From contig CAZBBX010000002.1 in NCBI GenBank assembly GCA_964490325.1, forward strand, positions 253 to 64,252: a stretch of 64,000 nt of DNA. Direction: 5' to 3'. Numbering within the stretch: position 1 is the first letter of the stretch; the number at the start of each line of letters is the position of its first letter. The notes under the pieces were generated by a model, which had not been told where the DNA came from, ran no database searches, and worked only from the letters and a program-made list of their open reading frames with translations. The stretch is from an uncultured Oscillospiraceae bacterium. GTDB lineage: Bacteria; Bacillota; Clostridia; Christensenellales; CAG-138. Positions 5,784 through 44,013 of the stretch are shown one piece after another. A program made the position numbers and the translations under genes.

Positions 5784-6452
5784 CTACATAATCATGCAGA
5801 CAAGGATCGGCAAAAAGATGGAGGGAATGTAATCCATCACCTTCAGCTTTGTTACGCCCAGCATGTTTAAGCCGACGCCGATGAGCAGCACGCCGCCCAC
5901 GGCTCCCATCTCGGTGATGGTGGCGTCGGGGATCAGCGGCACCAACACGCCTGCCAAAAGCGCAAACACACCCTGATAGACCAGCACGCTCACAGCGGAG
6001 AACAGCACGCCTGCTCCCAAGGTGGCAGCCAGCATCAGCGCCGAAATGCCGTCCAAGATGGCCTTGGTGAACAATGTCGTGTGATCGCCCGAGAAGCCGT
6101 CGTCCAGCGCGCCTGTTATCGCCATTGCCCCCGTGCAAAACAGCAGGGTCGCCGTAAGAAAGCCTTCGGCAAGGCGCTTGTCATCGCCATGCCCCATGAT
6201 CTTGTCGCTAAGGGCGCTGATGCCGTCCTGAATGCGGATTAGGCTGCCAAGCGCCGCGCCCGCGGCAATGGAGATCACCGGCACAAGCGCGTTGTTGGTG
6301 GTCAGACCGCCCTGTATGCCGAGCAGCACGACCATAAGACCCAAGGCGCGCATCACGCTGTCGGCAATGCGCGCTCCGATCACCTTATGCAGCAGCAGAC
6401 CCAAGGCGCCGCCAACCAGTATGGCGGCGCTGTTGACCAAGGTTCCGATCAT
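5784..6452 (-). CDS. DUF554 (YqgA-like) membrane protein
   Basis: MIGTLVNSAAILVGGALGLLLHK..LGLMVVLLGIQGG is a polytopic hydrophobic protein. The ATG at 6450-6452 overlaps the ileS stop (ATGA). Confidence 0.7.
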   Translation of the reverse strand: MIGTLVNSAAILVGGALGLLLHKVIGARIADSVMRALGLMVVLLGIQGGLTTNNALVPVISIAAGAALGSLIRIQDGISALSDKIMGHGDDKRLAEGFLTATLLFCTGAMAITGALDDGFSGDHTTLFTKAILDGISALMLAATLGAGVLFSAVSVLVYQGVFALLAGVLVPLIPDATITEMGAVGGVLLIGVGLNMLGVTKLKVMDYIPSIFLPILVCMIM

Positions 6453-9400: not shown

Positions 9401-9565
9401 ATGCGGCTTGCCGTTGGCCGTAGGCGGTCCGTCGTAAAAGGTATAGGTCGACTTGCCCTTGCGGAGCGCGACGCTTTTTTCAAAGATCTGCTCCTTCTTC
9501 CAAAACTCTAAAACTTCTTTTTCCCGATCCACAAAATTCAGATCGGTGGACACCTTTTGATACAT
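6449..9565 (-). CDS. ileS: Isoleucine--tRNA ligase (long, type-2-like form)
   Basis: MYQKVSTDLNFVDREKEVLEFWKKEQIFEKS..PPTANGKPHIGHVL (HIGH)..KMSKHLGN (KMSKS). The 27 codons upstream in the ORF track are T-box leader, not coding. Confidence 0.95.
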   Translation of the reverse strand: MYQKVSTDLNFVDREKEVLEFWKKEQIFEKSVALRKGKSTYTFYDGPPTANGKPHIGHVLTRSIKDIIPRYKTMKGYDVLRKAGWDTHGLPVELEVEKSLGLDGKKQIEAYGVEPFIKECRKSVWKYKSEWEQMSDRVGYWADMEHPYITYEDNYIESEWWALKTIYDKGLLYKGYKIVPYCPRCGTALASHEVAQGYKTVKEVSTIARFYLKDGSGVALLAWTTTPWTLPSNVALCVNEHESYVRVNKDGERFILAEALVPSVLGEDVTIEERFLGKALIGTEYEPLFELPVDFGAKKGYRVVADDYVTLTDGTGIVHIAPAFGEDDNRVGKAWDLPFLQLVDASGHLCGGTPWDSVFVKDADPLINAALGENGKLFKTLPFEHDYPHCWRCDTPLIYYARESWFIKMTAVKDKLIAFNRSVNWIPETIKDGRMGNFLENVIDWGISRERYWGTPLPVWTCSCGHVHVIGSKKELRNMSDNCPEDIELHKPYIDRVNVYCPVCGKRMKREPVVIDCWFDSGSMPFAQWHYPFENRAEFERRYPANFISEAIDQTRGWFYTLLAIATCLFDEPPFKSCVVLGLVCDKDGKKMSKHLGNVVNPWDVLDKQGADAVRWYFYTGSMPWLPSRFSSENVSEYQRKFMGTLWNTYAFYALYAEIDGFDPTCHSLRQEALTAMDRWVLSRLNSLVCAVDRDLDALKITEAGRELQRFTDELSNWYLRRCRERYWGSEMTPDKEAAYMTLYTVLKTIALLCAPFVPFMSEAIYQNIVRSVDKKAPQSVHLCDFPTANEALIDPALEKTMDEVLELVVLGRSIRNEANIKTRQPLGAMYVQGRELESAYVNIILDELNVKALHFVRDASDFISYRVKPQLRTLGPRYGKLLPKLNAYLAAAGIGDAVVKAHAAGELYRTSIEGVEVELAAEDVLVSTEQKAGLVSASESELTVVMDTNLTQDLLDEGLVRELISKLQTMRKEAGFEVADHIRIGYTGSERVKEIFDRFGTEIAADTLADAISDAPEGYVKEWSINGETATLSVARE

Positions 9566-9589
9566 GCGTACCTCCCATATACATTCGTT

Positions 9590-9827
9590 GAAAAGAAAAA
9601 AGCTCCCGTCCCGAAGGGACGAAAGCCTGTGCTTCCGCGGTACCACCCAAATTGGCGCATATACGCCCGCTTTGTTCCCTTAACGCGGGAAACGTGCAAG
9701 CTTATTGGATCGACCGATCGTTCGGCTCGCCGCTCGCGGGTGATCTTCAAAAAGGGCTTTGCACCGCCTTGCACCATGCGCGGCTCGCTTTCCAAAGGCT
9801 CCTTATTTACTCTCCCGTTCAACGCTT
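9590..9827 (-). promoter_or_regulatory. T-box leader (tRNA-Ile sensing) with intrinsic terminator
   Basis: The minus strand carries the canonical T-box AAUUUGGGUGGUACCGCGG (reverse complement of 9635-9653). It is followed by an 11-bp terminator stem GCUUUCGUCCC-UUC-GGGACGGGAGC and UUUUUUCUUUUC (about 9594-9630). The candidate specifier GAAG-AUC-A is the reverse complement of 9741-9748, with the AUC codon at 9742-9744. Confidence 0.85.
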
Positions 9828-9833
9828 TAGCCC

Positions 9834-15915: not shown

Positions 15916-18900
15916 TTAGACGGGGTTCACCGCAGTGATGACCACGTTGAAGACGTAACCGGAACTTCCGTTGTTGGATTTTGCGTAAGCGCCCCAGCAA
16001 TTCGGATTGTTGTTGTTATCATACTTCATGGCGATCAAGCGCGTAGTGTAGGTTGTCGGCTCAATGGAGAAGACACCCGTGTCTGCATCCTTGGTGATCT
16101 TGAATTCCGCAGCGGTCTCCGAGATCGTCAGGTTCGTAGAGTTGGGAGCGCTGATGTAGCCCGCATTGGACTTGATGGTCCAAGTGCCTTCGGTCGCGCC
16201 TGCCGCGATCGTCCAAACCGTCGCTTCCGCTTCCGTGGTGGCGGAGGTCAGCTTGTTGCTGTTGACGGTGTCGGTCATGTAGTAGGTGGCGTCATTGTAG
16301 TCAACGGAGATCAGATACTGGCCTGCCGTGATGTCAGGTTCGGGTTCAGGCTCGGTAGCTTCCTCGGTCACCCACATGTCGCCTTCCATAACGCGCCACT
16401 GCAGCGTGTTATAGATGCCCAGCGTCAGGTATGCGCCGATCTTGTCGCCTGCACCCAGCTCTGCCATGTCATAATCGGCAATGGCGGGAGCCTTGTAGAT
16501 GGTCATCTCCTGCGTGCCATCGGTGACAACGATGTTGTAATAATCACCGTTGGCCGTGACGGAAACGACTTCCAGATCGAAGCTGGAATCCGTCTCGTCT
16601 TCGGGTGCGTCATACAACACCTGACTGCAGTACAGCATGCCAGCATACTCTTCGACGGACGCAAAGTCGATCGCGCCGAAGTTCCAGCTCTTGTCGTAGC
16701 TGTAGTCATCCTCGGAATTATCGAACTTGACCTCGTCGATGACTGCATTGCTCAGCTCCGGCAGTCCCTTATACCAAGCGGTGGTGCCCGTGACCTTGAT
16801 CACATCGCCCTGCTCCAGGTCCGTGGGGGTCTCCGCCATATAGGCGCAGATGCCGTAGTAGTCGTCCGTGCTGCTGCAATCAGTATAGGTGCAGCTCAGA
16901 TACACGTTCTTGCCATCGATGAAGGTGACGGCGCCAACGGTGGTGTAGGTTTCGGCCAGCGTTGCATCCTCCGCCATAGCGGTACGGATGTCGTTGATGG
17001 GCGTGTACTCAGGCGGGTTGACTTGGATCTCGTAAGCCGGGAAGTTGGATGCATAGTCCATCGGCGCTACATAAACGATCTCCTGCGTGTATCCGTCAAG
17101 ATCGAAATAGACGGTCGTGGAAGCACCCTTGTCCATGACAAACGCACGTCCCGTGATCCTCTTGCCAAGGCCGTCGTACAGGCCGATGTAATCCAAGTAC
17201 TGGTTATCGGACACGGTAACGCGCAGCATATGATCGGACAGAATCGGCAGCTCGTCCAAGCCGACCAAGTAACGCAGGATCTTTGCAGCATCCGCCGCAT
17301 TGATGGCTTCGTTCTCATTGACGTCGGCTTCGATCTTCTGATCGTCGGTCAGCTCATCCAGCTGGATGTCGTAACGAAGGATCGCTACGGCGTCGGCCGC
17401 GGTGATCATATCGTCTTGGTTGACGTCGCCCAGCATATCGACAAAGAGGTATGCGTCGTCAAGCTTCGGCGACTCGGTGTCAACGGTCAGACCGTACTCC
17501 CATACGATCTCATCGTCCCATTCCTCTGCGCTCATTGCGGCATAGTCGCCATTGAGCGCCCGGAACTTGCTCTCCAGCTCGGTCTCGTAGTCCAGCCAAG
17601 CATAGTACTTGATATCGACCTTCGTCTCGTTGGGCACATAGTTTCCATCCATGTCCGTGCCGTCCCAAATGAAGGTGCCCTGCGAGGAGAAGTAGCCGCT
17701 GTCATCAAGGTATGCCTTGCCTAGATACTCGGTATCGTCCACATAGTACAGCTCACCCGTTTCCTGATCAAAGACCAGCATGATCAGATGGCGTGCGTTG
17801 CGCAGCTGCATCGGGTAGGAGACCATAGCATCGTAGATGTAGCCATTGTTGCTGTCGCTCGTCTCGTTGGAAATGGCGTTGCGATCGGCCTCATAGTACA
17901 CATACGCCCAATAGCTGTCGCCCAGCAGACTAACAAGCTTGCCCTGATACAGCGATGCGGCATACGCTTCGTTGATGCCAATGTTCTGATCCAGGAAGCT
18001 GTTGTAGTCGTAGGTGCCGGAAAGACCATTCTTCACAATATAGGCGGTCACGTCGATCTCATCGCTGAAATCGTAGGTATCCAGCATCGCGCCGTCCGTC
18101 CAGTCGCCATAGAAGCCCAGATAGGTGGCGTGGATATCGGGAACACTTATATTATCGGTAATGCAGCTCAGCGTGATATAGCCCTCGAAATAGATACCAT
18201 TTGCATAGTAGTAATCGAGCGTGGCCTTGCCTTCTTCAGTCAGGGAGATAAAGATCTTGATCTTTTTCTCGCTTTGATTTGCATTGATCGTGAAGATATT
18301 ATCGACGCAGTTGCTGCTGCCGGTCGCCAAGCCTTCACTGATCATGTTCAAGGTCTGCAGCGTATCGAACTTATCCCCTCTGTACGAAATAGGATAATCG
18401 GTCAGGATCGAGAAGTCCACGGAATACGCAAGATTCTGATGATACGGATTCTTGATCGTCAGATCGAACACGTAGTCGCCGCTGCGCTCGGGATCGTCGC
18501 CCAGTTCCACCAAGGGTTCATCGATATAAATGGGCGTACCGCCGGCGTTTACAGCGTTGATGAGGCCTGCGCCCTGCTTGCGCGGGGAAACGGGATCGCC
18601 ATAGCTGTCTGTTTGAATGATGGCGGTGTTCTCAACGGTCGCCTCAAGAATATGAGCGCGCTCCGCCTTCGTTATGCCGGCATAAAGCGGGCTGCTGCTG
18701 ATCGCCTGAATGACCGTAGCGAACATGCCGGTCGCGTTAGGCGCAGCCATGGAGGTGCCGCTGTAGACTTCGTATGCGCTGTCGCTGGTGTTGACAGAGG
18801 AATACACCATGCCGCCGGGCGCCGTGATCATGGGCTTGATAGCCAGATCGGAGGTGGTGCCCCAGGAGCTGAAGTCGCTCATGGTGCCATAGGTGGGATT

Positions 18901-20631
18901 GCCGCAGATGGCGAGGTCTTCGTTGACATGCAGCGTTCCGATACCATTCTCGTCAGCAGCGGCGATCAATGCCGCACCTGCAGCCTGCGTGATGGAAACG
19001 GCAGGTGCATAGAACGTAGCAATGGACATGTTGATCTGCCCCGCTTGGTTGTTGTAGCAGATCATGCCGGCAGCGCCCGCGTTGTATGCGTTCTGCAGCT
19101 TCGTGGAGAAGTTCAGGTCGCCGCGCTTTACCAACGCGATCTTGCCCTCTACGTCGGCGGTGGCAGCGAAATCTGCTTCGGAGCCTAAGCCCGAACCGCC
19201 GATGACGATGTATTCAAGATCCTGTCCCGCGAAGCTCGTGCGGAAGCGCATGTCCTTCGTGGTTCCGTCGGCACTGACGTCGCTGCCCGTTGCCGTGTCG
19301 GAATATGCATAGTCTACATCCCCGACCTTAACGCCGTAGGAGGGATATGCGATGTTGTTCGTGCTGGCAACGGAGAGGTTGCCGCGATAGGTCGCAGGGC
19401 TGCCGGTCACGCCGTAATCCACATACTCGGCAAAGGTGTACTGTACGCCGAGGTAATAGTTGTTGATCCAGTCGCCATAGGCCATGCTGTACTCGTTGCC
19501 TGCGGAGCAGCAAACGATGATGCCCGCTTTGTCGAGCTTATCATAGATGTTGCCAAAAACGCCTTCCAGCTCGGAGTCGTAGGTCTTGCCGTTCTGTGCG
19601 CCGATGGACATGTTGACCACGTCAACGCCCAAACGATAGCAGTCTTCCAAAGCCGCAAAGTAGATGTCGCTGTTGGTGCCGCTGCCCACATCGTGGAAGA
19701 TCTTCATGGCGACCAGCTGCGCCGCGGGAGCCGCGCCGTAGAAGGTCATTGCGCCGTCATCTGCCATAACGCAGCCAACGGAGGTGCCCGAGGTGTGCGT
19801 GCCGTGACCATTTTTGTCGCTCACATCGGTGTCGAGGTCTGCATAGTCATATGCGAAGGGGATCTTTGCAGACAGATATGCGCCGGGAACCGTGGTCTCG
19901 ATGGAGGCAACGTCCTCCTCGGTCAGGACGGGGGTGTCGATGATGCCGTAATCCTGGAACGCTTCATGCGTTGTGCGAACGCCTGTATCCAAAACAGCAA
20001 CCAAGACGCCGTCGCCGTCGTAGCCCCAACGGACCATGTCGGCCGCACCCGTCATGATGGTGGAATACGCGTTGTCAGGATTCTGATCGGAGCTGATCTC
20101 CGACTCGGGGACGTCGTAGCTGTTGGAAAGATAGACCGCGGATACGCCTGCCATGGTTTCGATCTGCTTGATGTTCTTGTAAGCGGTCGTTATGGCCACG
20201 CCGTTTATAAGAGCCGTGTAGTCGAAGTTCATGGTGTAGTCGAAGCCCAGCTTACGCAGGAAGGTGTTGTGGGCGCTCGTTAAGCGTGCGCTCTCAGCCT
20301 TGGCGCTTTCGCTGTTGGCTTCCTCCACTTCGTAATTGTCGATCAGCGCGTCGCCTTCAAAGACGACGATGATCCGCACCTGCTCGTCTGCATCGACTTG
20401 ATACAGCTCGAACTTGGAGATAGCCCCCTTCGGGGACAGTTCCTCCAGTTTGGTCTTCAACATGGAGCGATCGCCGCTGTCTGCAGTTGCGGTCGTTCCC
20501 TTGTCGAAGGTGACTTCCGTGCCCTTGGACGCGTCGGTGACATTCTTGCTTGCCCATGCCGTCGGCATCACTGTCGTGAGGATCATGGCTACCGCAAGAA
20601 CCATCGCAAGAATATATCTTGCTTTCTTCAT
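15916..20631 (-). CDS. Cell-envelope-type subtilisin (S8) serine protease with PA-like insert, internal dockerin and C-terminal tandem OB-like module plus extra tail domain
   Basis: Catalytic triad motifs VAVLDTGV, HGTHTSGT, SGTSMAAPNATG. Signal peptide MKKARYILAMVLAVAMILTTVMPTAWA. Dockerin GDVNQDDMITAADAVAILRYDIQL..DVNENEAINAADAAKILRYLVGL (DNA about 17250-17440). AGGAGG lies 9 nt before the ATG at 20631. Confidence 0.9.
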   Translation of the reverse strand: MKKARYILAMVLAVAMILTTVMPTAWASKNVTDASKGTEVTFDKGTTATADSGDRSMLKTKLEELSPKGAISKFELYQVDADEQVRIIVVFEGDALIDNYEVEEANSESAKAESARLTSAHNTFLRKLGFDYTMNFDYTALINGVAITTAYKNIKQIETMAGVSAVYLSNSYDVPESEISSDQNPDNAYSTIMTGAADMVRWGYDGDGVLVAVLDTGVRTTHEAFQDYGIIDTPVLTEEDVASIETTVPGAYLSAKIPFAYDYADLDTDVSDKNGHGTHTSGTSVGCVMADDGAMTFYGAAPAAQLVAMKIFHDVGSGTNSDIYFAALEDCYRLGVDVVNMSIGAQNGKTYDSELEGVFGNIYDKLDKAGIIVCCSAGNEYSMAYGDWINNYYLGVQYTFAEYVDYGVTGSPATYRGNLSVASTNNIAYPSYGVKVGDVDYAYSDTATGSDVSADGTTKDMRFRTSFAGQDLEYIVIGGSGLGSEADFAATADVEGKIALVKRGDLNFSTKLQNAYNAGAAGMICYNNQAGQINMSIATFYAPAVSITQAAGAALIAAADENGIGTLHVNEDLAICGNPTYGTMSDFSSWGTTSDLAIKPMITAPGGMVYSSVNTSDSAYEVYSGTSMAAPNATGMFATVIQAISSSPLYAGITKAERAHILEATVENTAIIQTDSYGDPVSPRKQGAGLINAVNAGGTPIYIDEPLVELGDDPERSGDYVFDLTIKNPYHQNLAYSVDFSILTDYPISYRGDKFDTLQTLNMISEGLATGSSNCVDNIFTINANQSEKKIKIFISLTEEGKATLDYYYANGIYFEGYITLSCITDNISVPDIHATYLGFYGDWTDGAMLDTYDFSDEIDVTAYIVKNGLSGTYDYNSFLDQNIGINEAYAASLYQGKLVSLLGDSYWAYVYYEADRNAISNETSDSNNGYIYDAMVSYPMQLRNARHLIMLVFDQETGELYYVDDTEYLGKAYLDDSGYFSSQGTFIWDGTDMDGNYVPNETKVDIKYYAWLDYETELESKFRALNGDYAAMSAEEWDDEIVWEYGLTVDTESPKLDDAYLFVDMLGDVNQDDMITAADAVAILRYDIQLDELTDDQKIEADVNENEAINAADAAKILRYLVGLDELPILSDHMLRVTVSDNQYLDYIGLYDGLGKRITGRAFVMDKGASTTVYFDLDGYTQEIVYVAPMDYASNFPAYEIQVNPPEYTPINDIRTAMAEDATLAETYTTVGAVTFIDGKNVYLSCTYTDCSSTDDYYGICAYMAETPTDLEQGDVIKVTGTTAWYKGLPELSNAVIDEVKFDNSEDDYSYDKSWNFGAIDFASVEEYAGMLYCSQVLYDAPEDETDSSFDLEVVSVTANGDYYNIVVTDGTQEMTIYKAPAIADYDMAELGAGDKIGAYLTLGIYNTLQWRVMEGDMWVTEEATEPEPEPDITAGQYLISVDYNDATYYMTDTVNSNKLTSATTEAEATVWTIAAGATEGTWTIKSNAGYISAPNSTNLTISETAAEFKITKDADTGVFSIEPTTYTTRLIAMKYDNNNNPNCWGAYAKSNNGSSGYVFNVVITAVNPV

Positions 20632-20715
20632 GCTTTCTTTCCTCCTTACGTATTCTATATGACACATTCGTGTACAATACAGGTAAATATATTATACAGA
20701 GTGACCCAAGATTTG

Positions 20716-23191: not shown

Positions 23192-23234
23192 GGAACGTTC
23201 CTTCCCATTTGTTCAAGGATTGAACGTTTGTTCA
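23192..23234. promoter_or_regulatory. Cluster of inverted repeats built from TGAAC/GTTCA half-sites (candidate operator)
   Basis: GGAACGTTCC (23192-23201), GTTCAA-gga-TTGAAC (23211-23225) and TGAAC-gttt-GTTCA (23221-23234), located 16-58 nt upstream of the -35 of the BMC operon promoter. Confidence 0.35.
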
Positions 23235-23249
23235 TTCACTATATATTTG

Positions 23250-23278
23250 TTGACATTTTTCCAACGTTGCCTTATCAT
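23250..23278 (+). promoter_or_regulatory. Sigma-A-type promoter of the BMC operon
   Basis: TTGACA (23250-23255), 17 nt, TATCAT (23273-23278), about 45 nt upstream of the deoC-like start. Confidence 0.6.
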
Positions 23279-23324
23279 TTAGGTGATAAGAAAGCAGTAC
23301 CAAGTTTTATGGGAGGCAGTAAAC

Positions 23325-24167
23325 ATGGATAATCAGCAGATGGAGGCATTGGTAGCCAGCATCGTCAAGGAAGTCATGCAGCAAATGGGCGGCGTGCAGC
23401 CCTCCGCTTGCGCAGGCGCTTCCACGGGAAACCTTGCCAAGTACATCGACCACACCCTGCTCAAGCCCGAATCGACGCGGCAGGACATCAAGCGTGTCTG
23501 CGACGAAGCCAAGAAGTACAACATGGCCAGCGTATGCGTCAATCCCTCGTGGATCGGGTATGTTGCCGAGCAGCTTCGCGGGACGAGCGTGACCCCCTGC
23601 GTGGTCATCGGCTTCCCTCTGGGCGCGACCCTGCCCGCCGTCAAGGCGGCGGAAGCCGCGGCCTGCATCGCCGTGGGCGCCCGTGAAGTGGACATGGTGA
23701 TGAACATCGGCGCAGCCAAGAGCGGCGAATGGGACACCGTCCTTTCGGACATCCAAGCCGTCGTGGAAGCCGCCAAGGGAAAGGCGCTGGTCAAGGTCAT
23801 CATTGAGACCTGCCTGCTGACGGACGCCGAAAAGGTCAAGGCCTGCCAAGTCAGCAAGCTTGCGGGCGCGGATTTTGTGAAGACCAGCACGGGTTTCTCT
23901 ACGGGCGGTGCAACGGTCGAGGATGTGCGCTTGATGCGGCAGACGGTCGGCCCGAACATGGGCGTGAAGGCCTCCGGCGGCGTGCGCACGCGTGATGACG
24001 CCGAAGCTTTGATCGCTGCGGGCGCGTCCCGTTTGGGCGCCAGCTCCAGCATCAAGATCATCGAGGGCAGCGCCGAGGAGCACAAGTGCATCCATTGCGG
24101 CAACTGCCAGCGCGGCGACTCTTCCTGCCCCACCGGCGCGGCTGTGCTGCGTAAAGTCCTGTATTGA
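23325..24167 (+). CDS. deoC: Deoxyribose-phosphate aldolase (DERA/DeoC family) with N-terminal encapsulation-peptide-like helix and C-terminal Cys-motif tail
   Basis: GGGAGG lies before the ATG at 23325. [23 protein letters not shown] is an amphipathic helix plus linker. DeoC core: [52 protein letters not shown] (Schiff-base Lys), [10 protein letters not shown]. Tail: [15 protein letters not shown]. Confidence 0.85.
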
Positions 24168-24199
24168 TGGATCTGCCGAAAGGCTTACGGGAGGCGAAC

Positions 24200-25153
24200 A
24201 TGGACGAGTCAACGATCCGCCAATGGGCCCAGACCCTCTTGTGCGAGCAATTCGCCAAGGAAGGGCAGTTTTTTGTACCCGTCTCGTCCTCCAATCGGCA
24301 CCTGCACCTGTCGCGTGCGGACTGTGACGCGCTCTTTGGCGCGGGGCACGAGCTGACTAAGCTGCGCGATCTAAGGCAGCCGGGGCAGTTTGCCTGCACC
24401 GAGCAGCTCACTGTGCGAACGGAAAAGGGCACGATGACGCTGCGCGTGGTGGGTCCCCTTCGCAGGGAGACGCAGGTGGAGCTTTCCGTTTCGGACTGCA
24501 TCAAGCTGGGTCTGCCTGCAGTCGTTCGGCTTTCGGGCGACACGGCGGCTACACCCGGCGCGGTGCTGGAGACGGCGCAGGGACGCGTAACGCTCACAAA
24601 GGGCGTGATCGTCGCGGCACGGCATCTGCATCTGTCCGTTGAGCAGGGAAGGATCTACGGCCTGAAGTCTGACGATACTGTCCGCCTGTTCGTGGAAGGC
24701 GAGCGAGCGACCGTATTTGATAATGTGATCGTCCGCTGCGGCGACGCGCATCTGCTGGAGGCGCATATCGACGTAGAGGAAGCAAACGCGGCGCTGCTGC
24801 CAAAGAACGCCATCTGTCGCATCGAGCGGCAGGGTGCGGCGGCGGCCTGCCCCATCGGCTCGCAAACTGCGGGCGGAAAGGCGGTACCCATCGTGATGGA
24901 CGGACAAAAGCGTGTATACGGCAACGTGATACCCGCCCCCGAAGCGCCCTTTTACGCAACGGCAGGCGGTGTGATGATGGATAAGATGCAGCGGGGGCCA
25001 ATGCCTGAGCTGCACCGCAAGGAGCTTATGACGGAGGCCGACGTATACGCCGCCTATCAGCGCGGGGTACGCAAGCTGACCTTGTCCACGGCTCTGGTGC
25101 TGACGCCGCTGGCGCGGGATCGCGCAAGGCAGCTCGGCATGGAAGTGGAGTAA
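24200..25153 (+). CDS. pduL: PduL-type phosphate acyltransferase with C-terminal extension
   Basis: GGGAGG lies before the ATG at 24200. Two PduL repeats: PVSSSNRHLHLSRADCDALFG..LRVVGPLRRETQVELSVSD and IVAARHLHLSVEQGRIYGL..VIVRCGDAHLLEAHIDVEEANA. About 110 extra C-terminal residues follow. Confidence 0.85.
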   Translation: MDESTIRQWAQTLLCEQFAKEGQFFVPVSSSNRHLHLSRADCDALFGAGHELTKLRDLRQPGQFACTEQLTVRTEKGTMTLRVVGPLRRETQVELSVSDCIKLGLPAVVRLSGDTAATPGAVLETAQGRVTLTKGVIVAARHLHLSVEQGRIYGLKSDDTVRLFVEGERATVFDNVIVRCGDAHLLEAHIDVEEANAALLPKNAICRIERQGAAAACPIGSQTAGGKAVPIVMDGQKRVYGNVIPAPEAPFYATAGGVMMDKMQRGPMPELHRKELMTEADVYAAYQRGVRKLTLSTALVLTPLARDRARQLGMEVE

Positions 25154-25157
25154 GGGT

Positions 25158-25463
25158 ATGGTCATCGGCAGAGTACACGGAACGGTCGTAAGCACCACCA
25201 AATGTCAAAAGCTTGATGGCATGAAGCTGCTTGTCGTCATGCCCATCGATCTGGATACCTTCACCGAAAAGGGGCAGCCCATCGTTGCGGTAGACGTAGT
25301 CGGCGCAGGCGAAGGCGAGGTCGTCATGTGCGTGTCGGGCAGTTCGGCGCGGCAGACGGATCGCACGGACGGCAGACCCGTAGATGGTTCGATCGTGGCC
25401 ATCATCGACCACATCGACTGGAAAGGCAAGCGCATCTTCGAGAAGTTTCCCACCAAGGAATGA
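25158..25463 (+). CDS. BMC pentamer vertex protein (EutN/CcmL family), paralog 1
   Basis: MVIGRVHGTVVSTTKCQKLDGMKLLVVMPIDL..IVAVDVVGAGEGEVVMCVSGSSARQ. Confidence 0.85.
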   Translation: MVIGRVHGTVVSTTKCQKLDGMKLLVVMPIDLDTFTEKGQPIVAVDVVGAGEGEVVMCVSGSSARQTDRTDGRPVDGSIVAIIDHIDWKGKRIFEKFPTKE

Positions 25464-25507
25464 ACGAACCGTCCAATACGGGCGGTCTGACGAAGTAAGA
25501 GGCGGAA

Positions 25508-26833
25508 ATGGCAGCGAAAAGCATCGTTAATCGGATCAAGGACGCGGGCGTCGTCGGAGCAGGCGGCGCAGGGTTCCCGACCCATGTCAAGCTGAAAGCC
25601 AAGGCCGACACGGTCATTGCAAACGGAGCCGAGTGCGAGCCCATCCTGCGCGTGGATCAGCAACTGATGGAACGCGAGGCGGAGCGCATCGTGCGCGGGC
25701 TTTCGTTAGCGATGGACGCAGTCGGCGCGGAGCATGGCGTCGTGGCCACCAAGAGCCATTATCAGGGCGCTGTGGCGGCTATGCAGGCGATCCTCCCCCG
25801 CTATCCCAAGATCGAGCTGCATTTGATGCAGAGCTATTATCCCGCAGGCGATGAAAAATCCCTCATCTATGAGGTGACGCGCCGCGTGGTCCCCTCCGGC
25901 AAGCTGCCTGCCGATGTAGGCGTGGTGGTGTCCAATGTCAACACGCTGCTGAACATTGCCCGTGCCGAGGAAGGCTTGCCCGTGACCCACAAGTACGTCA
26001 CCGTCTCGGGCGAGGTCAACAAGCCCGCCACCTACGAGGTGCCCATCGGCACAGACAGCTTTGAACTGCTGCGTTGGTGCGGTCTGCCCGATGATCTGTC
26101 CAAGTATATCCTGCTCATCGGCGGCCCCTGCATGGGACGCCTGAGCGAAGACTTTCATCAGCCCGTCACCAAGACGACGGGCGGCCTGATCCTTCTGCCA
26201 AAGGCGCACGCCTATGTACAAAAGCGGCAAATGCCCTTGGCTCGGCAGATCGTTCTGGCTCGCGCCTGCTGCTGCCAGTGCAGCCAATGCACGCAGCTTT
26301 GCCCCCGAAACGCGCTGGGACTGCATGTGCAGCCGCACAAGGCCATGCGCGCCATCGCACAGGCCAACGGTCTGCTGATCGGCGAACCCAACGGCATCCT
26401 TGCCTGCTGCTCCTGCGGACTTTGCACCAACTTTGCCTGTAACTTTGGCCTGAATCCCGCGAACATCATGGCGCAGCTCAAGGGCGAATTGGGCAAGCAA
26501 GGCGTTCGGCCGCAGCCCGAGACGGACATTCGTCCCGATCCCGCGCTGGCATTCAAAAAAGTCCCTGTTGCGCGTCTGATCGCCCGTATGGGGCTTGGCG
26601 CCTACGACATCCCCGCGCCTATGCTGGACGCACCCGCCGTCACACGGGTGAAGATCCCGCTCAGAATGCACATCGGCGCGCCGTCGGAGCCGATCGTCAG
26701 CGAAGGCATGAGCGTAAACGCAGGCGATCTGATCGCCATGATCCCTGAAAAAGCACTCGGCGCCAACATCCACGCATCGATCAGCGGTCGTGTGGTGCGC
26801 GTCAGCAGCGACAGTATCGAATTGGAGGCTTAA
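25508..26833 (+). CDS. PduS/RnfC-like flavin- and 2x[4Fe-4S]-binding oxidoreductase
   Basis: GVVGAGGAGFPTHVKL..ANGAECEPIL is an RnfC/PduS-type N-terminus. An SLBB-like middle part follows. CCQCSQCTQLCP and CCSCGLCTNFAC are ferredoxin motifs. The C-terminal ~70 aa (HIGAPSEPIVSEGMSVNAGDLIA..HASISGRVVRV) look like a barrel-sandwich hybrid. Confidence 0.75.
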   Translation: MAAKSIVNRIKDAGVVGAGGAGFPTHVKLKAKADTVIANGAECEPILRVDQQLMEREAERIVRGLSLAMDAVGAEHGVVATKSHYQGAVAAMQAILPRYPKIELHLMQSYYPAGDEKSLIYEVTRRVVPSGKLPADVGVVVSNVNTLLNIARAEEGLPVTHKYVTVSGEVNKPATYEVPIGTDSFELLRWCGLPDDLSKYILLIGGPCMGRLSEDFHQPVTKTTGGLILLPKAHAYVQKRQMPLARQIVLARACCCQCSQCTQLCPRNALGLHVQPHKAMRAIAQANGLLIGEPNGILACCSCGLCTNFACNFGLNPANIMAQLKGELGKQGVRPQPETDIRPDPALAFKKVPVARLIARMGLGAYDIPAPMLDAPAVTRVKIPLRMHIGAPSEPIVSEGMSVNAGDLIAMIPEKALGANIHASISGRVVRVSSDSIELEA

Positions 26834-26836
26834 CGC

Positions 26837-27382
26837 ATGTACGCATTAGGTATGGTCGAGTCCATCTCCATCCCCGCCGGCATCGAAGCGGGCGATGCGA
26901 TGCTCAAAGCGGCAGAGGTGGATCTGGTGCTTGCACAGGTCGTCTGTGCGGGCAAATACATCGTCTGCGTCAGCGGAGAAGTCGCGGCCGTGCGTCACGC
27001 CGTGGAGGCAGGTACGGTCGTCGCCGCCAACTGTCTGGTGGACAGCTTTGTCATTCCAAACGTCCACGAGAAGGTCATTGCAGCCATGAACGCCGCCTCC
27101 GTCATCGAGGAGGTCGCCGCCATCGGCATCATCGAGACCTTTTCCCTCTCCGCCGCCGTGCAGGTGGCCGATCACGCGGTCAAGGCCGCCGAGGTCGAAC
27201 TGATCGAAGTCCGTTTGGGCCGCGGCATGGGCGGCAAGTCCTTCGTCCTGTTGACAGGCGAGGTGGCAGCCGTGCGCGCAGCGGTACAGGCGGCACAAGC
27301 CCACGAGGAGTTAGCGGGTATGCTGGCAAGGAGCGTTGTGATCCCTTCGCCGCATCCCGATTTGATTCAAGCTCTGCTGTAA
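26837..27382 (+). CDS. Tandem-domain BMC-T shell protein, PduT-like
   Basis: Two BMC domains: LGMVESISIPAGIEAGDAMLKAA.. and AIGIIETFSLSAAVQVADHAVKAA... Cys37 in VVCAGKY aligns with the Fe-S ligand Cys in ICPGKF of PduT as I recall that sequence. Confidence 0.8.
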   Translation: MYALGMVESISIPAGIEAGDAMLKAAEVDLVLAQVVCAGKYIVCVSGEVAAVRHAVEAGTVVAANCLVDSFVIPNVHEKVIAAMNAASVIEEVAAIGIIETFSLSAAVQVADHAVKAAEVELIEVRLGRGMGGKSFVLLTGEVAAVRAAVQAAQAHEELAGMLARSVVIPSPHPDLIQALL

Positions 27383-27430
27383 GGCAGGATCTACCTTTCA
27401 AAATACAGAACAAAAATAAGGAGTACAGTC

Positions 27431-27721
27431 ATGAAAGAAGCATTGGGTATGGTTGAAACGCGTGGCCTGATCGGCGCCATCGAGGCGGCGGACGCCATGG
27501 TGAAAGCGGCAAACGTCCGTTTGGCCGGCAAGGAACAGATCGGCAGCGGCCTTGTCACCGTCATGGTGCGCGGCGACGTCGGCGCGGTCAAGGCAGCAGT
27601 CGAAGCAGGCAGCGCAGCGGCAAGCCGCGTGGGCGAGCTGTACGGCGCGCATGTCATTCCCCGTCCGCACAGCGATGTGGAATACATCATCCCGCAGGTG
27701 CCCGAGCAGGCACAGGCATAA
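27431..27721 (+). CDS. BMC-H hexamer shell protein (PduA/EutM-like), copy 1
   Basis: [67 protein letters not shown]. Confidence 0.92.
27536..27585 (+). repeat. 50-nt stretch identical to 28116-28165 (BMC-H paralogs)
   Basis: cagatcggcagcggccttgtcaccgtcatggtgcgcggcgacgtcggcgc reads the same in both BMC-H genes. Confidence 0.85.
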
Positions 27722-27724
27722 GGC

Positions 27725-27991
27725 ATGATCGTCGGCAGGATCGAGGGGAATGTCGTTGCGACCGTTAAGGATCGGCGACTGACGGGCGTCAAGCTGCTTT
27801 TGGTGCGCTTGATCGAGAATGGTACGCCCAAAAACCTCATCGTTGCGGCTGACATCACCCGCCAAGCGGGCATGAACGACTTTGTGACCTTGGAGACCTC
27901 CAAGGAAAGCTCGCTCATGTTCCGTGAGGAGCAGTGCGCCTGTGATTATGGGATCACCGGCTTTATCGACGATTTTCACGAAGAACTATAA
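27725..27991 (+). CDS. BMC pentamer vertex protein (EutN/CcmL family), divergent paralog 2
   Basis: [52 protein letters not shown]. The N-terminal half is EutN-like. The usual GAG..GS.AR region is diverged. Confidence 0.7.
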
Positions 27992-28007
27992 TTTTTGGAG
28001 GTTTATC

Positions 28008-28292
28008 ATGGAGAAGCAAGCTCTGGGTATGGTTGAGACCCGCGGACTGATCGGCGCCATCGAAGCGGCCGACGCAATGGTCAAAGCGGCAAACGTTCAC
28101 CTCATCGGCAAGCAGCAGATCGGCAGCGGCCTTGTCACCGTCATGGTGCGCGGCGACGTCGGCGCAGTCAAGGCTGCGGTCGAAGCAGGCGGTTCTGCGG
28201 CGAAGGTCGTGGGCGAGCTGTACGGCGTACATGTCATTCCCCGTCCGCATGACGACGTGGAGTACATCCTGCCGAACATCGACAAGAAGTAA
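28008..28292 (+). CDS. BMC-H hexamer shell protein (PduA/EutM-like), copy 2
   Basis: [73 protein letters not shown] lies before the ATG at 28008. The ORF-track start at 27924 overlaps the previous gene. Confidence 0.92.
28116..28165 (+). repeat. 50-nt stretch identical to 27536-27585 (BMC-H paralogs)
   Basis: Same 50-mer as in BMC-H copy 1. The flanking DNA is similar but not identical. Confidence 0.85.
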
Positions 28293-28298
28293 GCTCTT

Positions 28299-28592
28299 AT
28301 GAAGCTGGCGCGTGTCGTCGGAAATGTGGTCTCCACCATCAAGGAGAAGACCCATTACGGCAAAAAAATGCTGATCGTGCAGCCCATCGATACGGATGGC
28401 TCCCCTCTCGGCGCGCGCATTGTCGCTTTGGACGCGGTGGACGCGGGGATCGGCGACGTTGTGTTGCTCTGTGTCGAGGGCGGTTCTGCAAAGATCGCCC
28501 TCAACGACAAGGACGTCATCATCAACGCGGTGGTGACGGGCGTGGTGGATTACTACACCGTGGACGGCGTGACCCGCGACGTGCAGCACTGA
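28299..28592 (+). CDS. BMC pentamer vertex protein (EutN/CcmL family), paralog 3
   Basis: MKLARVVGNVVSTIKEKTHYGKKMLIVQPID..IVALDAVDAGIGDVVLLCVEGGSAKIAL. Confidence 0.85.
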   Translation: MKLARVVGNVVSTIKEKTHYGKKMLIVQPIDTDGSPLGARIVALDAVDAGIGDVVLLCVEGGSAKIALNDKDVIINAVVTGVVDYYTVDGVTRDVQH

Positions 28593-28682
28593 GCGATCCA
28601 AGTCCCCTTCCCTGCCCTTTTCTGTATGGAGGGGGCATTTTCCCGTGTAACTTTACCATGGCCTTAGGCCGAAGGGATACCC

Positions 28683-29507
28683 ATGACCAACGAAGAAATG
28701 AGCGAACTGATCCGCAAGCAGGTGGTCGATGCCATCACCGCCTCGCGCTGCGCCGCTTCGGGGATCGGCTGCAAGCCCCCGGTGGGGACGGGCTGCGAAC
28801 CCGTGCCTGTGGTGGGACAGACCGGCTGCCCCGGCGTCAATCCCGCCGCCGCACCCTGCGGCGAGCTGGCCGCCGTGCTGGAGCATTCCCTGCTGAACCC
28901 CGACATAAGCGAGCAAAAGGTGCTGAAGGGCTGCCAAGAGGCAATTCAGTACGGCTTTGCCAATGTCTGCGTCACGCCCTACCTCGTCAACGCCGCCGCA
29001 AAGCATTTGAGCGGCAGCAAGGTCTTGGTATCCGCCCCCGTAGGCTTTCCCCACGGCGCAGCATCGCTGTTTTCCAAGTGCGCCGAGATCCGCTACTGCA
29101 TCCAGTGCGGTGCCAAGGAGCTGGATCTTTCGCTGAACATCGTGGCAGCCAAGAGCGGACAATGGGACGTGGTATACCGCGAGCTGTGCGAGATGCTGAA
29201 CACCGCGGGTAATCGCGCCGTCTGTAAGGCTATCTATGAGCAGGGGCTGTATACGGACGAGGAAAAGACAAAGATCCTGCAGCTGATCGACAAGAGCCGT
29301 GCTCCCTACCTGAAGATCAGCAACGCCCTGACGGGAAAGAAGGCCGTCCCCGAGGATGTGCGCTTCGTGCGCTCAGTGGTGGGCGACCGCATCGGCATCA
29401 AGATCGACGGCGGCATCAAGACCGCCCAGACTGTGCGGGAGCTGCAGGCTGCGGGCGCGCAGCGCTTCGGCTGCTCCGCCTCCGTCGCAATCGTTACGGG
29501 CGCTTAG
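28683..29507 (+). CDS. Divergent DeoC/DERA-family aldolase paralog with N-terminal helix and Cys/Pro/Gly-rich linker
   Basis: MTNEEMSELIRKQVVDAITA helix. Linker SRCAASGIGCKPPVGTGCEPVPVVGQTGCPGVNPAAAPCG. Aldolase core LEHSLLNPD, VCVTP, PVGFPHGA, ELDLSLNIVAAKSGQW, CKAIYE, YLKISNAL, GIKIDGGIKT aligns block by block with the first copy. Confidence 0.75.
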   Translation: MTNEEMSELIRKQVVDAITASRCAASGIGCKPPVGTGCEPVPVVGQTGCPGVNPAAAPCGELAAVLEHSLLNPDISEQKVLKGCQEAIQYGFANVCVTPYLVNAAAKHLSGSKVLVSAPVGFPHGAASLFSKCAEIRYCIQCGAKELDLSLNIVAAKSGQWDVVYRELCEMLNTAGNRAVCKAIYEQGLYTDEEKTKILQLIDKSRAPYLKISNALTGKKAVPEDVRFVRSVVGDRIGIKIDGGIKTAQTVRELQAAGAQRFGCSASVAIVTGA

Positions 29508-29534
29508 AAACATCTTTATAAGAAGGCAACAGCA

Positions 29535-29568
29535 GATCACCCCGCCAAGCAGCGGGGTGATCCTTTTA
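29535..29568 (+). terminator. Intrinsic terminator closing the BMC operon
   Basis: GATCACCCCGC-caagca-GCGGGGTGATC followed by CTTTTAT, 28 nt after the stop at 29507. Confidence 0.75.
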
Positions 29569-29701
29569 TCCTATTCCTTTTATGTTTTTTGTCCGCGACG
29601 TCTTAAGTGGATTCATTCTGAATCCGTCATGTTTCCCTCATTTTCCGAAAAGCTTTTCACCTATATAAACAGCACCTGTCAAGAAAGATTACAGCTTTAA
29701 C

Positions 29702-29750: not shown

Positions 29751-31022
29751 CTATTGCTGCAGCGCTGTTTCCTTCTTTTGCCTTGCGGCGGAGATGAGAT
29801 ACAGCGGTATGGCGGCAAGCTGCGCCACGACCGACAGGGCGATCATGGCGGGCAAGCTCCACTCGTACAGCGCGCCCAAGAGCCAGCTTCCCAGAAACCA
29901 AAACACTCCAAAGGAGCATTCAAACACCCCATACCCCGTGGCTCTTGCGTGCTTGGGCACCATGCTTGTGACGGCCGCTTTCAATATGGATTCCTGCGCG
30001 CCCATGCCTATGCCCCACAGCGCCACGCCGATCAAAAGGAGCGGCACCGAATCGAAGCCGAAGATGAACAGCGCGAAGGGCGCTGTTATGAGCGTTGACC
30101 AAGCAAGCACGCGTACGCCCCGCTTGTCGTACCACAGGCCGAACAGCAGCGCTGCCACCGCGTCCACCAGCATGGCTCCCGCGTACAGCAGGGGCAGCGT
30201 CCCCGTGGTGATGAGTGCGGAACCCGTGCTGAGCGAGGGCGCCAGTTCGGTGTAGACTCTGGAAACGTGCATGACGATCAGCGAATAGTCGATAAAGCCG
30301 AACGCAAACAGGCTGATACCCGCAATGTAGAGGATGAAGCTCCCGCGCATACGAAACGGAACGTACTCCTTGGGTTCGGGCTCAAAGCGTTCGGGATTGG
30401 GAAACTTTTTACGCGTGACGATCAGGAGGATCAGCGTGATCGCCCCGGGTATGGCAAGCACGGCAAAACAGCCTGCGTAGATCTCGTAGGTCGTTCCCTC
30501 CGTGCGAAAGAGCATGACAAGGTACAAAAGCACGGGACCAAGGAACGCGCCGATCTGATCCAACAGCTCCTGTATGCCAAAGCTCTTGCCCACGCCCTCC
30601 TGCGAGGCTGCAAAGGACATGATGGCGTCCTTGGCGGGCTTCTTAATGGCCTTGCCCATGCGTTGGATGATGAGCAGACCGCAGGCCGCGATCCAGCCAT
30701 GCTCCCCCACCAACGCCAGCGCGGGAACGGCAAGGACGTCCAGCACATAGCCCACGATGGTCATGGGCCAGTAGCGCTTGGATCTGTCAGTCAGCTTGCC
30801 AAACAGGAAGCGCAGGGAGTAGCCGATCATCTCCCCCAAGCCCGATACGAAGCCTATGGTGGAGGCGGATGCGCCAAGCAAAGCAAGGTATGCGCCGCGT
30901 ATGCAGGTCGCGCCTTCATGCGTCATGTCCGAGAACAGGCTGACCACGCCAAAGAGGATGATGAACAGCATCGCCTGCGAAATGCGGTGCTTTTTTAGTT
31001 GCTTTTTCTCCTCAGTCTGCAT
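29751..31022 (-). CDS. MFS transporter
   Basis: 423 aa with about 12 hydrophobic segments and an MFS-like loop motif GKLTDRSKRYWPM between TM2 and TM3. Confidence 0.8.
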   Translation of the reverse strand: MQTEEKKQLKKHRISQAMLFIILFGVVSLFSDMTHEGATCIRGAYLALLGASASTIGFVSGLGEMIGYSLRFLFGKLTDRSKRYWPMTIVGYVLDVLAVPALALVGEHGWIAACGLLIIQRMGKAIKKPAKDAIMSFAASQEGVGKSFGIQELLDQIGAFLGPVLLYLVMLFRTEGTTYEIYAGCFAVLAIPGAITLILLIVTRKKFPNPERFEPEPKEYVPFRMRGSFILYIAGISLFAFGFIDYSLIVMHVSRVYTELAPSLSTGSALITTGTLPLLYAGAMLVDAVAALLFGLWYDKRGVRVLAWSTLITAPFALFIFGFDSVPLLLIGVALWGIGMGAQESILKAAVTSMVPKHARATGYGVFECSFGVFWFLGSWLLGALYEWSLPAMIALSVVAQLAAIPLYLISAARQKKETALQQ

Positions 31023-31509
31023 GGTCTTCCTGCCCTCTCTTGTTGGCGATCAGATCCGTAAGCGTGGGAAAGCCCGCTCGGCTCTCCTGCTTGGAGCGCC
31101 TGTACAGCTTGTCCAGCGTACTTGTAAAGGCGGCACGCTCCTTTGCTCCCAGCTCTGCTGTCAACCATTCATAGAACAAGCTCTCCGCCTGTACACGGGA
31201 AAGCTTCATCGATTCTGCGCGCTCCGTGGCGTACAGCTTGCAGCAGCGCTTGTCGGCAGCGTCCTCCTTGCGCGTCAAGTATCCCTTCGTCTCCAGCACG
31301 GCACAGCGGCGCGCAACGGCGGCGCGATCCATGCAAAGTGTGCGGCAAAGTTCCGCCTGTGAGCAGCCCGCATGATGACGGACCGTGTGGATCAAGTCCA
31401 TATCCGTTGCGCCCAAGCCGTCCTGCCTGCAGTTTTGCGCTGTAAAATGCGCCAACTCCCTGACGATCTTGCTCATCTGTCTTTCTGTAGGGTCCATGTT
31501 CGCTCCCAT
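31012..31509 (-). CDS. MarR-family transcriptional regulator
   Basis: Winged-HTH region GCSQAELCRTLCMDRAAVARRCAVLETKGYLTRKEDAADKR. It overlaps the MFS start by 11 nt, a typical MarR-efflux pairing. Confidence 0.8.
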   Translation of the reverse strand: MGANMDPTERQMSKIVRELAHFTAQNCRQDGLGATDMDLIHTVRHHAGCSQAELCRTLCMDRAAVARRCAVLETKGYLTRKEDAADKRCCKLYATERAESMKLSRVQAESLFYEWLTAELGAKERAAFTSTLDKLYRRSKQESRAGFPTLTDLIANKRGQEDHAD

Positions 31510-43937: not shown

Positions 43938-44013
43938 TGGTGGGCCAACAGGGGCTCGAACCCGGGACACCCTGATTAAGAGTCAGGTGCTCTACCAACT
44001 GAGCTATTGGCCC
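43938..44013 (-). tRNA. tRNA-Lys (anticodon CUU), CCA encoded
   Basis: Reverse complement is GGGCCAA-TA-GCTC-AGTTGGTA-GAGC-A-CCTGA-CTCTTAA-TCAGG-GTGTC-CCGGG-TTCGAGC-CCCTG-TTGGCCC-ACCA. The cloverleaf folds with one C-U mismatch in the T stem. Confidence 0.9.

Follow-up and report, generated by a model that had tools for sequence, protein, structure and literature searches.

How can a bacterial microcompartment (BMC) operon lack the enzyme around which its chemistry is organised and still be maintained? This question is raised by a ten-gene operon in a stretch of 64,000 nucleotides from an uncultured Christensenellales-like Clostridium (contig CAZBBX010000002.1), referred to here as the 64-kb window. 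In the current metabolosome model, an acylating aldehyde dehydrogenase (AldDH) is central. PduL, which recycles CoA, and the MNdh/BMC-T pair, which recycles NAD+, are purely its helpers. The operon encodes both helpers together with shell proteins and two DERA-family proteins (deoxyribose-phosphate aldolase type), and no AldDH. Window and relatives together show that such an AldDH-less operon of the sugar phosphate utilisation type 4 (SPU4) can be complete, conserved and under selection, and that it arose by clean deletion, probably more than once.

Ten intact, co-directional open reading frames (ORFs) span 23325-29507 on the forward strand in the ORF listing of the window. All ten translations were assigned by Pfam and NCBIfam profile searches:

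23325..24167, + strand: DeoC1, deoxyribose-phosphate aldolase (DERA); TIGR00126 deoC 293.9 bits (cutoff 117.3), PF01791 E = 5e-21
24164 (TTG) or, more likely, 24200 (ATG) to 25153, + strand: PduL phosphotransacylase; PF06130 E = 4e-62
25158..25463, + strand: BMC-P 1 (EutN/CcmL pentamer); PF03319 E = 3e-27
25464..25507, + strand: spacer of 44 nt, site of the missing AldDH gene; AldDH at the same slot in sister loci
25508..26833, + strand: MNdh, PduS-like NADH dehydrogenase; PF01512 Complex1_51K, SLBB, Fer4_17 and C-terminal RnfC_N
26837..27382, + strand: PduT-type tandem BMC-T, or BMC-T(SE); two PF00936 domains, E = 4e-47
27431..27721, + strand: BMC-H 1; PF00936 E = 1.5e-29, IPRPH motif in the translation
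27725..27991, + strand: BMC-P 2; PF03319 E = 4e-14
28008..28292, + strand: BMC-H 2; PF00936 E = 1.5e-28
28299..28592, + strand: BMC-P 3; PF03319 E = 2.4e-23
28683..29507, + strand: DeoC2, divergent DERA paralogue and last gene; TIGR00126 172 bits (cutoff 117), Pfam DeoC 22.2 bits against a gathering score of 23.8

Every assignment of the initial annotation is supported by these searches: two BMC-H, one BMC-T, three BMC-P, two DeoC, a PduL and a PduS/RnfC-like protein had been called correctly. The intergenic gaps are, in gene order, -4 or 32, 4, 44, 3, 48, 3, 16, 6 and 90 nt. The shell genes score over the Pfam gathering thresholds throughout, and with two BMC-H, a tandem BMC-T and three BMC-P they give the shell set of a BMC locus. 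The three BMC-P are distinct proteins: an orthologue of one is 30-53% identical to the remaining two.

The organelle type is already known. In the published SPU scheme, DERA cleaves deoxyribose-5-phosphate to yield glyceraldehyde-3-phosphate plus acetaldehyde, the latter of which AldDH converts to acetyl-CoA and NADH (PMC8217296, PMC11585597). A phosphotransacylase (PTAC) transforms acetyl-CoA into acetyl-phosphate, and MNdh/BMC-T(SE) reoxidises NADH (PMC8217296, PMC11585597, PMC11275729). All seven SPU subtypes were defined with an AldDH (PMC8217296; PMC11585597). The SPU4 subtype is marked by a PduL-type PTAC, eut_hyp (TIGR02536) and the lack of BMC-T(dp). Catalogued SPU4 loci have the PduS/PduT pair in 14 of 33 cases and a ribose-5-phosphate isomerase (RPI, PF02502) in 18 of 29 (PMC8217296, PMC11585597). 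The window shares with SPU4 a DERA (PF01791) with an N-terminal extension resembling an encapsulation peptide (EP), an EP-bearing PduL-type PTAC, the PduS/PduT pair, the BMC-P triplet and a trace of eut_hyp. It is collinear gene by gene with the locus of HGW-Firmicutes-9 (L023) and 35 others; L-numbers (L001-L058) label the related loci compared in this analysis, and L001 is identical to L042. Differences from SPU4 are the lack of AldDH, which is present in every curated SPU locus, the lack of RPI (optional in SPU4) and of triose-phosphate isomerase (TPI, PF00121), the reduction of eut_hyp to a 42-aa tail on PduL, a second, divergent DERA, and a C-terminal tail with four cysteines on the first one. 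By gene content and order, the operon is classified as a SPU4-family metabolosome locus.

The initial annotation had rightly pointed to catalogued DeoC-containing SPU-type loci. Its statement that experimental characterisation was lacking is out of date: the DERA of SPU6 was purified, is active on deoxyribose-5-phosphate and forms a complex with an RPI that is inactive (Dwyer et al. 2024, PMC11585597). What the Fe-S proteins do, a question that the initial annotation left open, is largely explained by the characterisation of the PduS/PduT pair as an NAD+-regenerating MNdh/BMC-T(SE) module, which is reported to occur almost exclusively with AldDH (PMC11275729). The curation of Dwyer et al. (2024) removed loci without AldDH as incomplete (PMC11585597). 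Conserved AldDH-less SPU operons were therefore not analysed in the SPU papers considered here (PMC8217296, PMC11585597).

AldDH (PF00171) was not detected by Pfam among the ten operon proteins. A tblastn search of the 64 kb with AldDH, two Zn-dependent alcohol dehydrogenases (Zn-ADHs), DeoR and eut_hyp from a related locus found no homologue. AldDH, ADH, DeoR and eut_hyp were also sought by Pfam in about 40 other ORFs of the window, which yielded housekeeping genes (ileS with a T-box, dnaB, dapA/B, asd, spoIIP and pgi), dockerin proteins and an MFS/MarR pair only. The RpiB-type RPI (PF02502) had no Pfam match in the operon or the other scanned ORFs of the window, and TPI (PF00121) is absent from the operon. 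Of the canonical metabolosome core, PTAC and MNdh/BMC-T are present in the operon, AldDH and alcohol dehydrogenase (AlcDH) are not. The earlier observation that the operon encodes no AldDH, ADH or transporter was borne out, and for AldDH and ADH the absence extends over the 64 kb.

The history of the locus is visible in its relatives. DeoC1 homologues number in the thousands, and the closest are from uncultured Clostridia and Christensenellales. Related loci were sought in one genome per GTDB species with an alignment of the BMC-specific DeoC2, and gene order was mapped by tblastn. The scan returned 36 loci, all in metagenome-assembled genomes (MAGs) of Christensenellaceae-like or unclassified Clostridia. 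One of these, HGW-Firmicutes-9 (L023), is labelled SPU4 in the shell-protein trees of the catalogue by Sutter et al. (2021). Four truncated loci were left out of the AldDH count. In 31 of the 32 assessable loci, AldDH is located directly between BMC-P 1 and MNdh, or before the next shell gene where MNdh and BMC-T are absent. L011 (MAG CAYRQM01) is the sole locus without it. The nearest relatives of the window (L009/L048, L010, L013, L014 and L020/L045) have its gene order plus AldDH, and L048 also has the same upstream neighbours, nadD and rsfS. These eleven-gene sister operons of uncultured Christensenellales share order, promoter, upstream palindrome and PduL tail fusion with the window at 57-97% protein identity. 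They differ by an EP-bearing, EutE-type AldDH of 465-508 aa with a catalytic Cys, which fills the gap between intact flanking orthologues. At the corresponding junction in the window, BMC-P 1 ends normally (…RIFEKFPTKE, then stop), and MNdh begins normally 44 nt further on. With AldDH exactly at this slot in the sisters and a clean gap in its place, the window is a precise deletion derivative of an eleven-gene SPU4-type operon. It does not represent a distinct, aldolase-centred design.

The AldDH-less ten-gene order was found in at least 12 independent assemblies (window, L002-L008, L011, L049-L051), so the absence is not an assembly artefact. Four other assemblies of the window's strain (L005-L008) have the same junction. 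A second AldDH-less lineage comprises seven assemblies (L002-L004, L050, L051, L049, L011) and five DeoC1 clusters at 90% identity. Trees of ten or five concatenated proteins show a near-trichotomy of the window, the L002 group and the AldDH-containing L009/L010/L013 group. They give no support to a single origin of the AldDH-less state: monophyly appeared in 0.3% of 300 bootstraps (simple neighbour joining). The junction spacers of AldDH-less loci differ as well, with 44, 12 and 3 nt. Two independent losses of AldDH are probable but not proven.

One relative carries several copies of such a locus. The 3.09-Mb contig CAXXTQ010000001.1 of a Christensenellaceae genome has three SPU4-like loci (L041, L042 and L043). 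Proteins of L042 and L043 are 100% identical from eut_hyp through DeoC2, and the upstream genes differ. This identity indicates a recent segmental duplication of the BMC core of about 6 kb.

Selection on the retained genes was estimated from pairwise comparisons. Between the window and L002, dN/dS is 0.04-0.29 for all ten genes, at dS > 1. Between L002 and L011, both without AldDH, it is 0.15 for PduL, 0.10 for MNdh and 0.12 for BMC-T. These two are sisters (100% bootstrap), so their divergence most simply occurred after the loss. For DeoC2, dN/dS is about 0.06. The pN/pS of PduL is 0.24-0.31 in AldDH-less pairs versus 0.28-0.34 in AldDH-containing pairs, and that of MNdh is 0.16-0.23 versus 0.21-0.30. 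The constraint on PduL and MNdh is no weaker in the AldDH-less pairs, which argues that the CoA- and NAD+-recycling enzymes are still needed. The substitution ratios indicate that the operon is not decaying and that all ten genes are under purifying selection. The genuine puzzle is the retention of PduL and MNdh under selection without a locus-encoded AldDH.

The retained enzymes have intact active sites. DeoC1 matches solved Gram-positive DERAs in the PDB with E = 2e-84. The alignment places the catalytic Asp in EVDMV, the Schiff-base Lys in FVKTSTG and the second Lys in GVKASGG. The N-terminus is 35 residues longer than that of 214-aa housekeeping homologues, which begin with MNLAKYIDH. In an AlphaFold2 model from 53 homologues, residues 3-21 form a helix and 22-34 a disordered linker, and the barrel spans 37-247 with pLDDT > 90. 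The N-terminus of DeoC1 is thereby predicted to have EP architecture, in support of the EP-like N-termini proposed earlier. Three things underlie this call: the extra residues compared with housekeeping DERA, the modelled helix and linker, and the SPU descriptions in the literature. Tested by hydrophobic moment, the putative EPs stood out weakly (shuffle fractions 0.03, 0.17 and 0.17). The N-termini of PduL and DeoC2 are EP-like, too.

PduL has the motifs SNRHLHLS, ETQVELS, ARHLHLS and EAHIDVEEAN, which align with the PduL of R. palustris (5CUO); the His/Glu motifs of the metal site are conserved. The C-terminus is extended by about 110 aa (residues ~221-329, 24824-25153), a variable linker followed by a conserved 42-aa end (LMTEADV...VLTPLARDRARQLGMEVE). 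This end matches the C-terminus of eut_hyp (TIGR02536 profile; eut_hyp of L001 with E = 9e-6), which is a separate protein after PduL in more distant SPU4 loci. It looks like the remnant of a gene fusion with eut_hyp. The tail fusion is shared with the AldDH-containing sister loci, and PTACs of about 302 aa carry the tail in another BMC type (L052, L058).

MNdh aligns with RnfC (7ZC6), with RnfC_N permuted to the C-terminus. It has the FMN/NADH motif GAGGAGFPT and two [4Fe-4S] Cys motifs. The pore cysteine C37 of BMC-T aligns with Cys38 of PduT (3PAC, 3NWG). The two genes adjoin with a gap of 3 nt. Domain order (Complex1_51K, SLBB, two [4Fe-4S], RnfC_N), the neighbouring PduT-type trimer with a pore Cys and the lack of an alcohol dehydrogenase are those of the MNdh/BMC-T(SE) module. 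The difference is that the window keeps this module, under constraint, without a locus-encoded AldDH.

Two features of the DERA-family proteins are unusual. The C-terminal tail of DeoC1 (residues 254-280, 24084-24167) has a ferredoxin-like CxxCxxCx6CP followed by a conserved C-terminal Tyr. Of 81 long DeoC1 homologues, 76 end in a CxxCxxCx(3-8)CP...Tyr tail, which the 214-aa housekeeping DERAs lack. Confidence of the AlphaFold2 model is low over the four-Cys tail. It may be a candidate Fe-S or redox-sensitive element bearing the catalytic-tail tyrosine. DeoC2 matches PDB DERA with E = 1e-50 and keeps the Asp/Lys/Lys triad. Its loops are altered relative to DERA: KTSTGF to KISNAL, KASGG to KIDGG and GASS to GCSA. 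It closes the gene order in 36 related loci and may act as an aldolase with changed specificity or as a partner protein without catalytic activity. A term search of PMC8217296 and PMC11585597 turned up no mention of the four-Cys tail or the DERA paralogue in the text it covered.

The linker of DeoC2 (residues ~22-60, 28746-28862, CAASGIGCKPPVGTGCEPVPVVGQTGCPGVNPAAAPC) is rich in cysteines, with five Cys, and was considered as an Fe-S site. The candidate was rejected: the segment is not in the L002 and L001 orthologues. A 20-residue insertion within this linker is not in the L002 orthologue, and the L001 linker is short and free of Cys. The five-Cys segment is lineage-specific and probably just a linker.

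How, then, is the gap in the pathway closed? The likeliest explanation, with moderate confidence, is that the compartment works as a deoxyribose-5-phosphate metabolosome and obtains its acylating AldDH from a gene at another place in the genome. The shell would admit deoxyribose-5-phosphate, or a close 2-deoxy sugar phosphate, for cleavage as in the SPU scheme. An EP-tagged acylating AldDH from a satellite gene or a second BMC locus would convert acetaldehyde, CoA and NAD+ to acetyl-CoA and NADH; this trans-encoded AldDH is the step that we infer. PduL would then form acetyl-phosphate and recycle CoA, with acetyl-phosphate leaving the shell for ATP synthesis. Electrons from NADH would leave the shell by way of the two [4Fe-4S] clusters of MNdh and then the cluster in the BMC-T pore. 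Except for the AldDH reaction, every step of the published scheme is encoded in the operon with intact catalytic residues. A trans-supplied AldDH is the best-supported model because PduL and MNdh are constrained and have no known substrate source besides an acylating AldDH.

There are precedents for such an arrangement. In ACI-type BMCs, the AldDH is consistently encoded by a satellite locus (Sutter et al. 2021, PMC8217296). Among the SPU subtypes, SPU4 alone is found together with other BMC types, the EUT2, GRM1 and BUF3 loci (PMC8217296, PMC11585597). The ACI satellite, this co-occurrence and the three paralogous loci in one relative make AldDH supply in trans plausible. As in ACI, the main locus of the window encodes an aldolase and a BMC-P triplet but lacks AldDH. 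ACI differs by a class II aldolase (PF00596), its occurrence in Acidobacteria and other accessory genes; its satellite AldDH is known, that of the window was not found.

Several observations weigh against AldDH supply in trans in a deoxyribose-5-phosphate metabolosome. No AldDH was found in the 64-kb window or within 10 kb of any AldDH-less relative, and a genome scan of the AldDH-less MAG CAYRQM01 revealed one DeoC2-bearing locus only. The sister-clade AldDH was searched against 5.8 billion proteins; every checked homologue with at least 72% identity is inside a BMC operon, with no orphan copy. The substrate of the compartment is assigned by homology, and related loci carry short-chain dehydrogenases (SDRs), Zn-ADHs, a ribulose-phosphate epimerase and DeoR, so the physiological sugar phosphate may not be derived from DNA. 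The dN/dS values are rough because dS is saturated.

Two 70% matches of similar prevalence (P0184, P0140) were considered as a translocated copy of the lost AldDH and were rejected, as they belong to a different type of BMC locus. This other type, reached via the 70%-identical AldDH, is located at 1800-17300 in L052 and 1266-15258 in L058. The enzymes include a class II aldolase, a pyridine-nucleotide-disulfide oxidoreductase, CoA-transferase A/B, an APH-family kinase (MtnK-like) and an IF-2B-family isomerase (MtnA-like). PTAC, AldDH, MNdh/BMC-T, two BMC-H, LacI and four consecutive EutN genes are also encoded, with Dak1/Dak2 and RbsD in some copies. By this gene content, the locus resembles a 5-deoxyribose/methylthioribose 'dihydroxyacetone phosphate (DHAP) shunt' coupled to a metabolosome.

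A compartment that is truly independent of AldDH is an unlikely alternative, though the foremost one. The DERA pair, PduL and MNdh would run other encapsulated chemistry, use another route for acetaldehyde or recruit a further enzyme that yields NADH and acyl-CoA and bears no obvious tag, and the Fe-S-like tail of DERA and the DERA paralogue would take an active part. The probable double loss (0.3% bootstrap monophyly; spacers of 44, 12 and 3 nt), the undiminished constraint on the other nine or ten genes and the lack of an orphan AldDH among the checked close homologues agree with this. So do the conserved ferredoxin-like four-Cys tail of DERA and the retained Schiff-base Lys with altered substrate loops in DeoC2. 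However, the 31 AldDH-containing loci have both tail and DeoC2 to the same degree, so neither is an AldDH substitute. The conversion of an aldehyde to acyl-CoA is not a known reaction of DERA, PduL or a NuoF/RnfC-type flavoprotein, and MNdh was reported almost exclusively alongside AldDH (PMC11275729). A self-sufficient AldDH-free metabolosome, assembled from the four-Cys-tailed DERA, the DERA paralogue, PduL and the MNdh/BMC-T conduit after repeated AldDH loss, is less probable still. Such a compartment would house aldehyde chemistry outside the AldDH-centred paradigm.

It is similarly improbable that the operon is an accessory module of shell and DERA which serves another complete metabolosome, different in type, in the same cell, so that the organelle would be mixed or shared and not self-standing. 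The co-occurrence of SPU4 with EUT2, GRM1 and BUF3 loci fits this possibility, as do the published 'EUT module' satellites that extend other BMCs. Closely related cores of AldDH, PTAC, MNdh and BMC-T are combined with quite different signature enzymes in related Clostridia (L052, L058), which shows modular exchange. Yet a full shell set with its own PduL and MNdh/BMC-T exceeds the needs of a module, and a second BMC locus was not seen in the 64-kb window.

A decaying, non-functional remnant is very unlikely. Loss of the key metabolosome enzyme would fit this, as would the curation in the literature, which calls such loci incomplete. Yet at least 12 assemblies, from at least six protein clusters at 90% identity, have all ten ORFs intact. 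The dN/dS of 0.02-0.29 with saturated synonymous sites, also between two AldDH-less species, and the conserved promoter, catalytic and cofactor residues contradict decay. An assembly or binning artefact, conceivable with relatives that are mostly metagenome assemblies, has a negligible probability in view of the junctions: L005-L008, independent assemblies of the window's strain, have the identical one, the seven assemblies of the second lineage have another that is just as clean, and the flanking ORFs are complete to their stop and start codons.

Three elements flank the ten genes:

23221..23234, + strand: operator-like perfect palindrome TGAACGTTTGTTCA (TGAAC-N4-GTTCA, 14 bp), 15 nt 5' of the window's -35
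23250..23278, + strand: sigma-70-type promoter TTGACA-17-TATCAT, 11/12 consensus matches
29535..29572, + strand: intrinsic terminator, 11-bp stem with 8 GC pairs, then a T-rich tail; hairpin with T-run located at 29535-29562

Promoter and GC-hairpin/T-run terminator were thus located as initially annotated. Promoter matches of this grade are expected by chance about twice in a region of the window's size and are weak evidence alone. In an alignment of 220 nt upstream of eight related loci, almost only the -35, the -10, the ribosome-binding site and one palindrome are conserved; TTGAC and TAnnAT are kept in all eight, and the surrounding sequence diverged. The palindrome lies 15-16 nt 5' of TTGACA in the window, L009 (3214), L048 (9891), L010 (3304) and L013 (3306). 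It also precedes distant SPU4-like operons (L021 155-168, L024 1945, L025 32, L033 192, L034 97 and L037 476) and is not present in the AldDH-less L002/L011 group. The core occurs just twice within the 64-kb window. It is true that the operon itself encodes no regulator, as was noted before; the conserved palindrome suggests control by a putative regulator encoded elsewhere.

The palindrome was also considered as a LexA (Cheo) box, and its core is the Firmicutes GAAC-N4-GTTC. The core fits, but the fixed site 5' of the -35 and the recurrence specifically before SPU4-like operons favour a dedicated regulator. An Rfam scan for a riboswitch or leader found nothing near the operon. AACGTT elements are located at 23194-23199 and 23262-23267.

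The neighbourhood of the operon has features of its own. Three secreted proteins encoded on the minus strand of the window have dockerin type I domains (549-1361, 13158-15719 and 15916-20667). They are a small cohesin-plus-dockerin protein, an 853-aa metallophosphatase/5'-nucleotidase and a 1583-aa S8 subtilisin with a PA domain. The set points to a cellulosome-like display of nucleotidase and protease. The dockerin 5'-nucleotidase (13158-15719), 7.6 kb from the operon, was considered as a nucleic-acid-scavenging partner of the compartment. Its proximity is not conserved in the L002 group and is circumstantial at best.

Downstream, a gene pair for an MFS transporter and a MarR-family regulator (29751-31509, - strand) is convergent to the 3' end of the operon. 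The pair is kept in L005, and a link to the BMC is not conserved, with TrkA/TrkH at that site in the L002 group. Between about 31800 and 40000, G+C is 0.49-0.51 compared to 0.56-0.61 on the flanks, and GC3 is also lower. Genes in this stretch are on the minus strand and encode small secreted or lipoprotein-like proteins, mostly without a Pfam match; one has a DUF5050 and one a BspA-type leucine-rich repeat. The stretch may be an acquired island, and it lies between the operon and the PGI/AP_endonuc_2/PALP genes, which adjoin the 5' side of the operon in the L002 group. A T-box leader (9612-9831, - strand, 111.6 bits) lies 5' of the isoleucyl-tRNA synthetase gene (6449-9646, - strand), and a tRNA gene is located at 43941-44013 (- strand).

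For the SPU4 family, the ten-gene operon of the window and the eleven-gene operons of L009/L048 form a natural experimental pair. The Fe-S-like tail of DERA, the DERA paralogue and the conserved operator-like palindrome are handles on SPU4 biology, and the compact operon may serve the engineering of DERA-containing shells. If AldDH is routinely shared between loci, this would affect the prediction of BMC function from single loci and the counts of 'incomplete' loci in catalogues. The alternative outcome would be a role of PduL and MNdh that is independent of AldDH. A trans-encoded AldDH is the likeliest explanation and an ordinary one; the repeated clean loss, with PduL and MNdh under constraint, is a readily testable exception to the AldDH-centred model of metabolosomes.

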